IMG/VR virus record: IMGVR_UViG_3300028591_000081
Location: 128,001-192,000 of that record
Direction: 5' to 3' (one strand)
DNA length: 64,000 nucleotides
Source of the DNA: a virus
Taxonomy: Duplodnaviria; Caudoviricetes
Shown here: in pieces, positions 247 through 59,315 of the stretch
Numbering within the stretch: position 1 is the first letter of the stretch
How the letters are laid out: each line of letters begins with the position of its first letter
Position numbers and translations under genes: made by a program
Notes under the pieces: model-generated
What the model was told of the DNA's origin: nothing
Database searches by the model: none
Seen by the model: only the letters and a program-made list of their open reading frames with translations

Positions 247-260
247 GTCCGTGCGTTTTA

Positions 261-300
261 TGGTGCTGATGTCCATTCTTTAGTTTCGTTCATGCTATAT
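261..300 (+). promoter_or_regulatory. Phage promoter motif TGGTGCTGA-N23-TGCTATAT
   Basis: One of nine intergenic copies with fixed spacing to an extended -10-like element. Confidence 0.7.
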
Positions 301-304
301 AGAA

Positions 305-590
305 GTTGCCCGGCAGAGCATGTCGGGATTATGAGGTGGAGACGGATTTGATCAAGCGCATATTATGATTCATAGTATGATGCAAGATCATTTCTGTCGA
401 TGAAACCTTACCCTGTGAAACAGGCTGGAGGATTCAAAAGTCATCAAATTTCTATTCTGGTGACGAAGAATTTGGCCAGCCTTGTGGGAATGCTTGGTAT
501 CTTTCCCACATATACGGGGATGCTACCCAGAAAATGCGACCACTCTGGGCCGTCTATCCGTGGTCTACCCACATATTATGTGGATGCTAC
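305..590 (+). ncRNA. Structured leader RNA (candidate tracr/guide scaffold) upstream of TnpB/Cas12-like nuclease
   Basis: Consecutive stems: CCCGGCA/TGTCGGG 309-327, long stem 341-398, CCTGT-GAA-ACAGG 412-424, GGCTGG/CCAGCC 423-481, TGTGGGAA/TTCCCACA 483-510, CCACATA/TATGTGG 569-583. Confidence 0.55.
497..590 (+). CRISPR. Putative minimal CRISPR-like array (2 degenerate ~30-nt repeats, 1 spacer of ~35 nt)
   Basis: TCTTTCCCACATATACGGGGATGCTAC (ends 526) and TCTACCCACATATTATGTGGATGCTAC (ends 590), period 64 nt, palindromic core; only two imperfect copies. Confidence 0.4.
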
Positions 591-607
591 GTAAAAGGGA
601 AAATAAG

Positions 608-2275
608 ATGTACGGTAAAAAGGAAAGTAAAGAGGGTATCGGTAAAGCTGGACTGGTAATCAGGCTGTACCCCAATCGAAAGCAGGAAGCCTTGCTGAAC
701 CGTGTTTGTTTGGACAGACTTCATCAGTACAAAGCACTGGCCTTGTGGTGGAATGTTTCCAACCAAGTTCGTCGTGCAAAGTGTGCTGAGTTCTTTTCAA
801 AGGAAGAGAACGAGGAAAAACGGAAAGCCTATAAGAGAACTTTACCAAATCCACCATTACCTTATCCTATCCCGTTTCCTACAAATGCTAAAAGTCGAAG
901 CGACACACACCCAGTTAGTCCCATAGCCTTCAATAGCCCTCATCTTCATGTTATTCGTGACCTCATGCCGTCTTGGATGCATTTTGCATTTGTTCCTGAC
1001 AAAGACGGAGGGGAGTTGTTTGATGTGAAAAAGTACATTCAGCATGTATTCGGAGATTCTGTATCCTCCTGCGAGGTTCTGGGGTATTGTAAGGAAGACT
1101 TCGCTAGGTCTATCAATTCGACCTTTTCAGAGATCAATTATAACCGATGTGTGAAAAATAAGAAGCCGTGGCCTCCTGTCAAGATACATACTCCCAAACT
1201 CAAGGATGCCAACACTTTCAGTCTTCGGTTGACTGGCAGAACCAGCCAAAAGTTTCAGGTAAAAAGGTCTTCAAGCGGGCGCGTTCACAAGGTTTGGGTA
1301 CCTTTTCTGTCGGGTGATCTGAGAAAGAAGTTCAGCAAAGACCCGAAATACGGTAAAGACTTTGAATGGGTAGACTGTGCCCTTTCTGAGAAACAGTTGG
1401 AAAAGTGTTCAAATGCGACGAAGATGACAGTAAAAAAGAATGGAGCAGGGCAGTGGACAGCCTCCGTTCTTTTTGAAAAGCCTCTTGAAGAACATGTAGA
1501 AACCGGTCTGGAATGTGGGATTGATTTGGGTCTCAAGACCACCGCAGTCTTGTCAGAAAATATGGTCGGTGAGACCTCAACAGAGTACGATAAGTACCGT
1601 CAAGAACAACTCCCAGTTGACGAGATAATGAAACTTGAAAAGAAGATTGACTACCTCAGGAAAGTTCAGTCCAGACGTATCAAGACTTGGCTACGACTTC
1701 ACAAAGATGACGAAGCCAATGGCCTGAAGCTGAACACCGATAAAAACGATAAGGCCCACAACGCTGTCGCCGTGTATTGCAAGAAATACAAGTCCAATGC
1801 TTACAAAGCCACAGAACAGCGCATTGCCAAGCTGAGTAATGATATCGCAAACATCCGTACTGACTTTGCCGAGAAATTTTCACGAAAGGTGGCAGATCGT
1901 TACGACGTGGTTGGTCTGGAAGACCTGAACGTAAATGGGATGGTGAAGAACAAAAAGATGTCCAGAAACTTGGAGCGCATTGGGTTTTACAAACTTCGGG
2001 TGGCGATTGAGCGGAAGGTGAAGACTCAGTTGCTGGATACCTTTGCCCCTTCCTCGCAGACCTGTTCTCGATGTGGATTTAAGAATAAAGCTGTCAAGGA
2101 TTGTTCGGTTAGGGAGTGGACGTGCCCACAATGCGGCCATCACCACGACAGAGATGAGAACGCCGCGTCAAATATCAGACCCTCAAGTCAGGGTTTGTGT
2201 ATGCAGTATGTTCCGAAGAAAGCCGATAAGGAAGTCTCTAAGAAACGTACCCGCAAGACGAATAAATCCGTGTGA
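608..2275 (+). CDS. TnpB/Cas12f-like RNA-guided RuvC nuclease, 555 aa
   Basis: N-terminal IRLYPNRKQE; RuvC-I GIDLGLKT, RuvC-II VGLEDLNV, zinc ribbon SSQTCSRCG...WTCPQCG, RuvC-III HDRDENAASNI; ATG 608 follows AAAGGGA. Confidence 0.85.
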   Translation: MYGKKESKEGIGKAGLVIRLYPNRKQEALLNRVCLDRLHQYKALALWWNVSNQVRRAKCAEFFSKEENEEKRKAYKRTLPNPPLPYPIPFPTNAKSRSDTHPVSPIAFNSPHLHVIRDLMPSWMHFAFVPDKDGGELFDVKKYIQHVFGDSVSSCEVLGYCKEDFARSINSTFSEINYNRCVKNKKPWPPVKIHTPKLKDANTFSLRLTGRTSQKFQVKRSSSGRVHKVWVPFLSGDLRKKFSKDPKYGKDFEWVDCALSEKQLEKCSNATKMTVKKNGAGQWTASVLFEKPLEEHVETGLECGIDLGLKTTAVLSENMVGETSTEYDKYRQEQLPVDEIMKLEKKIDYLRKVQSRRIKTWLRLHKDDEANGLKLNTDKNDKAHNAVAVYCKKYKSNAYKATEQRIAKLSNDIANIRTDFAEKFSRKVADRYDVVGLEDLNVNGMVKNKKMSRNLERIGFYKLRVAIERKVKTQLLDTFAPSSQTCSRCGFKNKAVKDCSVREWTCPQCGHHHDRDENAASNIRPSSQGLCMQYVPKKADKEVSKKRTRKTNKSV

Positions 2276-5958: not shown

Positions 5959-7260
5959 CTAACCTTCTAGCTGAGCGAGTCGTTCTTCAATAGATCTCAG
6001 ACGATCTTCCAGTTCAATGGCATTGCTCACACTGACTTCCAGTTGATGGGTATTCTGTGTTCCCTCAAGCCAGTTGCCTAATGGGATAAGGGCCGCACAA
6101 GCACACTGTGTACCTTCTGCAAAGCACGGCAAGGCATCAGGAGTACTCATCTGTGATCCAGCAAGCAAGTCCTGCTTGTTATCGTACCAACGAAATACCG
6201 CATCTTCAGCATGTTTGTTTACTGCTGTGGTTATTCCGTTCGAGTACGTGTCGATAACCGTAACTCTGAAGGTTTGTTCCATGAAAGACTCGGACAAGGT
6301 CTCTATGGAGCTGGCACCTGCCACGCCGATACACACCACAGCAAACAGATTGTACCCTTTTGTAAGGAAATGCGTACCAGACAAGGACAAGTCGCCAGCC
6401 TTCTCTATGGTAGGAATCACATGAACAACGTTTTCCAAGGATGCATCTCCGGTTTCCAGTAAGTAGAGAGCGTGCCGCAATGACCCTGTGTTTGACCCTT
6501 GGATGGCACTGAGAATGTTCTGAAGAGAACGTATCTGCCCTTTGTACTGGATAAGAACACTGGACGAATTGAGTTCGATGGAGTCTGTGTTCAGAGTGAT
6601 GTTGGTTGAATCCTCATTCTCTTCGTCCTTAGGGGAGGTTATCTGTGTACGATGGTTGACACTGTCGAACTTCACCATCGGAGGGTTTTCCCCCTCTGCT
6701 TGAATGGCTGGAAGGATCACCGTGGATTTGAAAGTCTTGGTTCCGTTGATTTCCTGATCGCCTGTTGTCCGGACAATTCCTGAATTCGGATTCTGCGCCT
6801 GTTGCTGAAACAGGCTGTTGATGTAGGCGATGATTTCCCCACGACTCATGGTATCGCCACCAGAGGGCTGGATCACACCATCCTGTACCTGCGAGAACGT
6901 CAAGGTGAACGTTACACTGGCACTGGTACCGGACAACCCGATAGGCGAGCTTGAGGAATACACACAGATGGGGATCTCTTCGGCATCGGTTTGAGACGCC
7001 AGTCTGCCACAGAGGATCGCGGTCTTTGCCTGATTGTCAGGATTCTCAAACTCCGCGATGATGATGTACCCAACATCCACTTCAGTGGTATTCACGGTGG
7101 TCGTAGAGACGGTGCCAGAAGCCTGAGTCATGTTGAAGATGGCTTCCTCAGTAAGGACTTCCCGAGACAGGTATGCTTTGGTAAATACGATAACGCCCAC
7201 ACCGGTTGCTTCACTGATGAGTTGCAACCCCTTATTTGTCATTGCTCTTACTTCGGCCAT
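5959..7260 (-). CDS. Tail fibre-like protein
   Basis: N-terminal MTNKGLQLI...IVFTKAY (fibre baseplate-attachment-like), VRTTGDQEINGTKTF fibre motif, C-terminal coiled coil. Confidence 0.6.
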   Translation of the reverse strand: MAEVRAMTNKGLQLISEATGVGVIVFTKAYLSREVLTEEAIFNMTQASGTVSTTTVNTTEVDVGYIIIAEFENPDNQAKTAILCGRLASQTDAEEIPICVYSSSSPIGLSGTSASVTFTLTFSQVQDGVIQPSGGDTMSRGEIIAYINSLFQQQAQNPNSGIVRTTGDQEINGTKTFKSTVILPAIQAEGENPPMVKFDSVNHRTQITSPKDEENEDSTNITLNTDSIELNSSSVLIQYKGQIRSLQNILSAIQGSNTGSLRHALYLLETGDASLENVVHVIPTIEKAGDLSLSGTHFLTKGYNLFAVVCIGVAGASSIETLSESFMEQTFRVTVIDTYSNGITTAVNKHAEDAVFRWYDNKQDLLAGSQMSTPDALPCFAEGTQCACAALIPLGNWLEGTQNTHQLEVSVSNAIELEDRLRSIEERLAQLEG

Positions 7261-57948: not shown

Positions 57949-59315
57949 ACGACTCGCGAGATTTAGCCCGTTGGTAAGGCGAGCAATTATTCTTGCATAA
58001 AGAATAACTATTTGTTACCTATATGTCTGGGTGGTTAGTCCGACGGGATGAAAAGTGAGTAAGCCTCTCACCCACCACCCTCTAAAACAAAAGGCACGTA
58101 TTCAAGGCTAAATACCAGTATGACTTACAAAGCGTTCAAGTACAGACTCTATCCTACTGCACCACAAGCAGAGAAAATCAACCAGAACATTGGTTGTGCT
58201 AGGTTCGTCTATAACCAACTGCTTGATGACAGGATAAAGGTCTATAAGGAAACAAAGCAAAGGTCAAAGAAGACCTACTGTGACTTGAAGAAAGAGTACG
58301 CTTTCCTTAAAGAAGTTGACAGTCGTGCATTGCTTCATGCAAGAGAAAACTTGGACGCGGCATACGACAAGTTTTTCAAAGAGCCAAGTACAGGCTTTCC
58401 GAAGTTCAAGGCAAAGCATAAGTGTCGCTGGAGTTATACCACGGACAACAACAGTGATGCTGTCAGATTTGATGGTAATCGCCTCAAACTGCCAAAAATC
58501 GGGTACGTCAAAGTTGTTGAACACAGACGGCATGAAGGACGCATTCTAACAGCAACGATAAGTCAAGAACGAAGTGGCGAGTATTATGCTTCTGTTTTAT
58601 GCGAAATTGAACCGTCTGAACCATTGCCAGTCACTGATAAGGTTATCGGAATCGACCTAGGATTACATGATCTCATTGTTTGCTCGGATGGTGAAAGAGT
58701 AGCGTCGCCAAAGCATTTCCGCAAATCAGAACAGAGACTGGCAAAACGACAACGAGCTTTCTCAAGAACTCAGAAAGGAAGCAAGGGACATGAGAAAGCT
58801 CGTTTGAAAGTCGCCCGGTGTCATCAGAAAATAAAGAACCAGAGGAATGATTTCCTCCAAAAGTTGTCCACCAAACTCATTCGCGAAAACCAAGTGATTT
58901 GTTTGGAAGACCTGTCTGTCAAAGGCATGGAACGAAACAAGAAACTGGCTAAGAGTGTATCTGATGCTAGTTTTTCAAAGTTCGTTTCGATGCTTGAGTA
59001 CAAGGCAGAATGGTACGGACGCGAGATAATCAAGATAGATCGTTTTTATCCTAGCACACAGCTTTGCAATGGTTGTGGATACAAGAATGAGTCTATTAAA
59101 GGCTTGAAAGGATTGAAGTTTAGAGAATGGATTTGTCCTGAATGTGGAGAAGTCCATGATCGAGATTTGAACGCCTCAAGAAACATCCTCAAAGAAGGAA
59201 TAAGAGTATTGAACCTACGGAACGTGGGGGATAGCAAGTTTACTGTGCATCACACTGCTTTAGTGTGATGTGCTTGCACTTGAAGCCCACCCGCTTTATC
59301 GGGTGGGTAGTTCAC
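57949..59315 (+). mobile_element. IS200/IS605-family element (tnpB only, IS1341-type)
   Basis: TTGAT at 57944-57948 precedes left end; right-end hairpin CCCACCCG/CGGGTGGG then TTCAC (59311-59315); no tnpA. Confidence 0.8.
58120..59268 (+). CDS. tnpB: TnpB RNA-guided endonuclease
   Basis: KAFKYRLYPT, IGCARFVYN, GIDLGL, ICLEDL, PSTQLCNGCG, WICPECG..HDRDLNASRNI. Confidence 0.95.
   Translation: MTYKAFKYRLYPTAPQAEKINQNIGCARFVYNQLLDDRIKVYKETKQRSKKTYCDLKKEYAFLKEVDSRALLHARENLDAAYDKFFKEPSTGFPKFKAKHKCRWSYTTDNNSDAVRFDGNRLKLPKIGYVKVVEHRRHEGRILTATISQERSGEYYASVLCEIEPSEPLPVTDKVIGIDLGLHDLIVCSDGERVASPKHFRKSEQRLAKRQRAFSRTQKGSKGHEKARLKVARCHQKIKNQRNDFLQKLSTKLIRENQVICLEDLSVKGMERNKKLAKSVSDASFSKFVSMLEYKAEWYGREIIKIDRFYPSTQLCNGCGYKNESIKGLKGLKFREWICPECGEVHDRDLNASRNILKEGIRVLNLRNVGDSKFTVHHTALV

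Follow-up and report, generated by a model that had tools for sequence, protein, structure and literature searches.

TnpB has given rise to CRISPR effectors about 50 times (PMC12669027). The omegaRNA of TnpB is itself a natural single guide, and a pseudoknot between a loop and the repeat end is the conserved element of TnpB and Cas12 guides (PMC10097598). TranC (Jin et al., Cell 2025) is described, in PMC13565253 and 10.64898/2026.03.27.714800, as a set of transposon-CRISPR intermediates, with phage CauTranC9 and LaTranC (PDB 9jfo/9jfq) among its members. These systems combine a compact TnpB-derived nuclease (300-600 aa, intact RuvC) with a CRISPR array of changing spacers and an omegaRNA-derived tracr; they have no adaptation genes of their own, arose independently from IS605 TnpB and include phage-borne examples. 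Cas12r of Thermus Lalka phages (bioRxiv 10.64898/2026.04.20.719267) is a TnpB-derived type V effector of ~560 aa with degenerate I-E-like repeats, no adaptation genes, an A-rich 5' PAM, a proposed acquisition through host type I-E and a role in inter-element conflict. Cas12p ('Cas12 hacker', bioRxiv 10.1101/2025.01.20.633832; PDB 9jfs) is phage-encoded, 500-700 aa long, and uses a tracr and crRNA with a loop/repeat-end pseudoknot. Cas12f (V-F) is a miniature RuvC effector with a long tracrRNA and two repeat/anti-repeat duplexes.

Here we describe a cassette that is in all likelihood the guide RNA of a minimal phage type V CRISPR system with an IS605-type TnpB as its ancestor. As the general kind has already been published (TranC, Cas12r, Cas12p), the surprise is limited; few natural series, however, show how an omegaRNA first becomes array-programmable, and this small clade displays the steps side by side.

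The window, meaning the whole stretch of 64,000 nt that was analysed, corresponds to positions 128001-192000 of a 227.6-kb virus record (a ~228-kb phage contig, estimated to be 96% complete) and is present in its entirety in one sheep gut metagenome run. A search of the 228-kb phage genome found no cas1. An initial annotation had proposed a structured RNA of ~290 nt, with an anti-repeat and two degenerate repeats, directly upstream of a nuclease gene. The region 305-607 folds with -111.4 kcal/mol (z = -4.9; 0 of 100 shuffles were equally stable), which upholds the structured RNA; its length has to be revised, since the scaffold and first repeat together span ~222 nt (305-526). The locus contains the following features.

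257-301, plus strand: phage-type promoter candidate, with a TGGTGCTG box within 257-269 and an extended -10 at 293-301
309-327, plus strand: 5' hairpin whose 5-nt loop (316-320) pairs with the repeat end, from loop/repeat covariation
333-409, plus strand: omegaRNA-type core, made of stem-UGGAG (333-341), a variable hairpin (341-398) and GAAA-stem (402-409)
423-481, plus strand: long stem-loop with a family-conserved AAGTCA motif, from folding and family comparison
483-490, plus strand: anti-repeat, pairing with repeat 1 (503-510) over a 12-nt loop (491-502)
499-526, plus strand: repeat 1, 28 nt, type I-E-like, the 3' part of the fused guide scaffold
527-562, plus strand: spacer of 35-36 nt, against a family mode of 33; strain X3 has unrelated sequence in its place
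563-590, plus strand: terminal repeat 2, degenerate, its own hairpin covering the anti-repeat-binding part; common to strain X3
608-2275, plus strand: TnpB-derived, putatively RNA-guided nuclease of 555 aa, ATG at 608, RuvC triad and zinc ribbon intact
2289-2316, strand not assigned: terminator-like hairpin 3' of the nuclease gene, from folding

The promoter pattern is loose, and its 28 matches in the genome are a raw count. Both repeats contain CCCACATAT...GATGCTAC and end at 526 and 590, as had been noted. With the repeats taken as 28-mers, the spacer measures 36 nt; placing the start of repeat 2 at 562 shortens it to 35 nt.

The nuclease carries OrfB_IS605 and TNB domains. Its catalytic residues D306/E438/D516 are invariant in 25 sequences. 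It scores 145 bits with the guided_TnpB profile (cut-off 100) and 156 bits with IS200_TnpB (cut-off 425). About 25 full-length homologues, 33-53% identical in the alignment and 510-590 aa long, share insertions that are missing from ordinary TnpBs. A profile search of 1.84 billion representatives returned nine family clusters, followed by a drop to generic TnpB. In a quick IQ-TREE analysis, a long branch with 100% support set the 20 family rows apart from the rest; this tree is midpoint-rooted and contains no characterised Cas12 or TranC sequences, so what it shows is limited to a separation from the TnpBs sampled.

The traits of TranC, Cas12r, Cas12p and Cas12f named above are shared by this system, with an A-rich PAM, acquisition through host type I-E and inter-element conflict as likely features, and each comparison also brings out differences. 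Sequence similarity to LaTranC is confined to RuvC (E 3e-22, residues 303-540; Foldseek 17% identity). The repeats are 28 nt long and I-E-like, in contrast to the 32-38-nt repeats of TranC clades 3, 9, 11 and 20, and the scaffold is joined in cis to repeat 1. The lineage appears distinct from characterised TranC, a separation that covers LaTranC and these four clades only, and it may already be catalogued among the putative TranC clades or V-U groups. There is no significant sequence similarity to LalCas12r (BLASTP E 0.12), and Cas12r uses a 44-nt crRNA without tracrRNA, whereas the window system retains a full covarying scaffold. Cas12p gave no phmmer match at E 0.001 and a structural comparison with a TM of 0.41 at 14% identity.

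The closest match in both fold and sequence is ISDra2 TnpB (PDB 8h1j), and the RNA core and pseudoknot are common to the window system and IS200/IS605 TnpB. Unlike those enzymes, the window nuclease is ~150 aa longer and would take its guide from a CRISPR spacer instead of the transposon flank; unlike mobile OMEGA TnpB, its gene has no omegaRNA core at its own 3' end (2101-2400 scanned). A resemblance to Cas12f had been suggested from the repeat end and from the long tracrRNA-like leader. Neither comparison held, as the repeats are similar to those of type I-E, and homology links the scaffold to the IS605 TnpB omegaRNA core. Identity to Cas12f is 14-16%, no Cas12f chain was among the phmmer PDB matches, TnpB scores better, and the PADLOC Cas12f profiles match at a generic RuvC level of ~100 bits. 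Taken together, the system would function like TranC, and like Cas12r in its spacer supply; beyond RuvC, its nuclease matches none of the characterised enzymes compared.

The homologue loci are surrounded by phage-type genes, in neighbourhoods that vary from locus to locus. Nearly all those examined contain a structured RNA that leads directly into an array with a 61-nt period. The exceptions are two loci in which the scaffold stands before a collapsed array (L142, L147) and two in which the array is broken by an assembly gap or contig end (L137, L091). A repeat run of any kind occurs in only 6 of 120 ordinary TnpB loci. Up to 12 spacers follow a single scaffold. The cassette is mostly downstream of the gene in homologues and, judged by this comparison of loci, its upstream position is a rearrangement of this phage's lineage. 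One homologue, L003, has a cassette on each side of the gene; its upstream copy extends to the start codon, like that of the window.

The phage contains another cassette 4.5 kb further upstream, outside the window on its 5' side (L009:5742-6126; G000 C1:123742-124126). It is 84% identical over 231 nt, and its four repeats comprise the first repeat and three more copies. It adjoins no nuclease; 3 nt separate its last repeat from the start codon of an exonuclease gene (phrog_107).

The scaffold and repeat 1 are held together by two pairings. The loop of the 5' hairpin (316-320) forms a pseudoknot with the end of repeat 1 (521-525). Over 11 distinct loop/repeat pairs in the family, 44 of 55 positions are Watson-Crick, against a permuted mean of 27.1. 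A value as high was reached in 0 of 100000 permutations, a significance inflated by the relatedness of family members, and slid controls gave 13-25 of 70 against 56 of 70 for the true register. Loops and repeat ends have varied independently several times (AAAUA/UAUUU, UGACA/UGUCA, AGAC/GUCU, AGCA/UGCU). The segment 483-490, proposed early on as an anti-repeat, pairs perfectly with 503-510. Across the family this helix covaries (cognate pairing 64.0 against a permuted mean of 53.2, p = 0.0008), and RNAalifold recovers it unaided, with two-sided changes at three of its five pairs. Covariation thus bears out both pairings and, with the family-wide linkage, the view of the initial annotation that a scaffold-repeat-spacer-repeat cassette belongs to the adjacent nuclease.

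Of 69 ordinary TnpB 3' regions, 27 contain a core of the form 'stem-UGGAG ... GAAR-stem' (0.45 expected from shuffles), as do 14 of 17 family cassettes. Because this core is common to both, the scaffold is, on comparative grounds, a descendant of the IS605 TnpB omegaRNA. L092 and L139 retain the ancestral position, with the core 165-204 nt inside the 3' end of the nuclease ORF. No Rfam family matches the scaffold or repeats, and a scan of IMG/VR with the scaffold pattern gave no matches. As a separate observation, L092:4330-4685, L139:6480-6821 and L096:4230-4560 belong to one subclade in which the ORF is extended at its C-terminal end by a low-complexity stretch that contains the scaffold, an arrangement known from TnpB and Cas12n.

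The arrays have the format of another CRISPR type. Family repeats share 15-20 of 28 positions with the V. cholerae I-E repeat (18 for repeat 1 of the window), and 28-nt repeats alternate with spacers of mostly 33 nt, 47 of which have exactly this length. The first base of the spacer is a pyrimidine in 44 of 59 cases (p = 4e-5). A 28+33 format with pyrimidine-first spacers has been reported for a V. cholerae I-E variant (PMC7677007), and the family arrays have the type I-E format of 28-bp repeat, 33-bp spacer and PAM-derived first base. Arrays degenerate at the distal end, away from the scaffold, which indicates that spacers are inserted on the scaffold-proximal side. L140 spacer 4 and L093 spacer 1 overlap on opposite strands and so reveal each other's 5' flank, which is GAA in both; the 5' flank can be inferred for three family spacers and contains AA in all three. 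These flanks reflect an acquisition motif, not the PAM of the nuclease. Given the I-E-like repeats, the spacer format, the scaffold-proximal insertion and the flanks, family spacers are likely to be loaded in trans by host type I-E Cas1-Cas2.

Sequence turnover identifies 527-562 as a true spacer. One contig of the bovine run X3 extends from the scaffold through three repeats into the beginning of the nuclease gene, with 17 differences in 459 nt from the window; its loose ends place the cassette behind the same kinase gene, and the nuclease DNA of this strain is ~96% identical. Its two spacers are unrelated to the window spacer, while the flanks are the same, so that the predicted variable segment (527-561) between conserved flanks was found in a related strain. 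This replacement, together with the omegaRNA-core homology, supports the proposal of a minimal phage type V-like system or TnpB-to-Cas12 intermediate, and it overturns the caveat that the spacer might be a scaffold pseudoknot. The stems on which that caveat was built (526-531/544-549 and 538-543/560-565) do exist; 32 of the 59 family spacers equal or exceed this one in fold stability, and we regard the spacer pseudoknot as a chance structure, the functional one being 316-320/521-525. An apparent skip of 4544 nt in X3 was judged to be a mapping artefact of the two paralogous cassettes, because the genes between them have coverage.

Searches for targets, suggested at the outset, were negative. 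A search of IMG/VR for exact seeds gave no matches for the window spacer, the two twin spacers in the upstream cassette, the X3 spacer or one shared family target, and BLAST of the spacers against phages and plasmids returned matches with E 2-7 or none. The sole GTDB match, in a Rhodocyclaceae MAG, covered 20 spacer bases before diverging; it was rejected because 596 Gb of sequence should yield about one match of this kind by chance. Thus, a protospacer was found for 0 spacers of this phage in IMG/VR, phages, plasmids and GTDB. No self-target was present in the phage genome or the family loci examined, nor did 14-nt guides have a self-target with an AA flank. Elsewhere in the family, upstream spacer 2 of L003 (L003:3870-3903) matches the downstream scaffold of the same phage (L003:5642-5675) at 29 of 34 positions with an AAA flank. 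Four of the mismatches are in the seed, within a compensated stem. This match is a candidate for targeting of a relative's guide cassette, or for escape from self-targeting.

RNA contigs of X13 and X14, which belong to two different metatranscriptome studies of the sheep gut, align to 322-540 and 346-540 with 0 mismatches. Both cross the anti-repeat, loop and repeat and end at 540, 14 nt into the spacer. Depth is 3.6-5.6, without strand information, and DNA carry-over is possible because one library also covers other phage genes. On the upstream cassette, an X13 contig passes spacer 1 untrimmed and ends 3 nt past its repeat 2. The contigs give a weak hint of a fused, trimmed guide with its end at 540.

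Scaffold-repeat pairing, omegaRNA ancestry, spacer turnover and intact catalytic residues are established by sequence comparison; in operation, the system would work as follows. A phage promoter would transcribe the scaffold, repeat 1, spacer and repeat 2, probably with read-through into the nuclease gene. The RNA would fold like an omegaRNA, the 5' hairpin loop forming the pseudoknot with the last bases of repeat 1 and the anti-repeat pairing with the 5' half of the repeat, so that the repeat would replace the transposon right end. Trimming inside the spacer, as the RNA contigs hint, might yield a natural single guide of ~235 nt with 14 nt of guide, fewer than the 16-18 nt that TnpB, Cas12p and Cas12r reportedly use. 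The nuclease would bind this guide and cut DNA beside a short 5' motif, probably AA-compatible. Host type I-E Cas1-Cas2 would insert new spacers at the scaffold-proximal repeat, and the newest spacer would thereby become the fused guide. Competing phages or other mobile elements are the likely targets.

Within this framework, we tentatively propose, as a reading whose chances fall somewhat short of even, an unnamed type V lineage, of independent origin and carried by ruminant-gut phages, whose unsplit omegaRNA is fused to the leading repeat of a captured I-E array and doubles as leader. Host Cas1-Cas2 would then reprogram a natural single guide directly. On the same reading, it is plausible, again at a little less than even chance, that the living stages run from a scaffold in the 3' end of the ORF (L092, L139) through downstream cassettes to upstream or detached ones, as in this phage.

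The same system might instead split its guide as TranC and Cas12f do, with the 491-502 loop cut, the scaffold serving all repeats in trans and the fused form as precursor; we consider this possible, though less likely than not. Arrays of up to 12 spacers per scaffold would be usable only by trans pairing or re-pairing, the pseudoknot end is retained in every repeat, and splitting is the route described for TranC (PMC13565253). However, the RNA contigs cross the loop intact and stop within the spacer, L001, L142 and L147 have a scaffold joined to a partial repeat without a clear anti-repeat, and both this phage and L003 duplicated whole scaffolds along with arrays. The guide is fused in DNA and RNA contigs alike, and loop processing is not visible in the contigs. 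Fused and split modes can coexist.

It is unlikely that the family is real and the window copy is decaying, or acts as a DNA-binding regulator instead of a cutter. Repeats 1 and 2 have diverged and the spacer is over-long (2-3 nt above the family mode), on which grounds the window cassette copy may be ageing; the target searches were empty and the P0001 terminal branch in the IQ-TREE tree is longish (0.61). Against this, the ORF and RuvC triad are intact, compensatory changes keep the pseudoknot and anti-repeat, the gene occurs with new spacers in related strains, RNA is present in metatranscriptomes and 14-nt guides lack an AA-flanked self-target. About as improbable is a viral mini-array that programs or jams host type I-E Cascade and is not used by the neighbouring nuclease and scaffold: the repeats are I-E-like and viral mini-arrays and crRNA mimics have been described (PMC11656645; 10.1101/2024.10.29.618823), but scaffold loop and anti-repeat change in concert with the repeat ends, which makes sense only if repeat and scaffold form one RNA fold, the Cas6-type hairpin is nearly lost in some repeats (-0.8 kcal/mol), and repeats diverge widely among phages, always with the scaffold in front.

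The preferred reading, a guide cassette of a TnpB-derived phage nuclease, offers a directly testable mechanism in which a host class 1 adaptation module supplies spacers to a phage class 2 single guide. It also provides a family of 510-590 aa nucleases, probably with an A-rich PAM, for which covariation has already outlined a natural guide design. In addition, it offers a candidate example of phages that target one another's guide cassettes.

Several further observations were made in the family loci. Spacers 1 and 2 of the upstream cassette (L009:5961-5991, 6020-6049) look like two alleles of one coding target; their reverse strands read EIANLIHST and EIADLIHTT, with no homologue in this phage or the family loci compared. 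Spacers from different samples (L140:6987-7080, L093:4067-4099, L094:4226-4258) match the same two targets on opposite strands. At L001:5790-5817, L142:2230-2275 and L147:11790-11900 the scaffold runs into a repeat that is halved or collapsed, and a clear anti-repeat is missing; at L003:5858-5942 its 3' part is instead duplicated within the array. L147:12030-12145 is a short inverted element close to the 3' RNA and right end of the 382-aa TnpB of this phage, apparently a non-autonomous copy. A HEARO RNA (Rfam RF02033, 103.7 bits) lies at L140:10343-10556 on the minus strand, ~4 kb from a family nuclease. Regular repeat runs occur within 3 kb of ordinary TnpB genes in L019, L020, L045, L083, L105 and L109.

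In the window, AAGTCA...AATTT (436-453) is conserved in sequence 45-60 nt 5' of repeat 1 and is a possible leader signal for spacer integration. A TCTTTGA motif, a candidate boxA-like antitermination signal, stands ~15-30 nt 5' of most family scaffolds (e.g. L001:5572, L008:5668); it is a frequent word, with 78 copies in this genome. Two more TnpB genes lie outside the family: one at 58120-59268 of the window (plus strand, 382 aa), with an IS605-type right end, and one at G000 C1:22197-20844 (minus strand, 450 aa). The passenger TnpB of the phage has only 53% similarity to clostridial TnpBs. Three tRNA genes (Tyr, Leu, Leu) are located at G000 C1:139840-140560.
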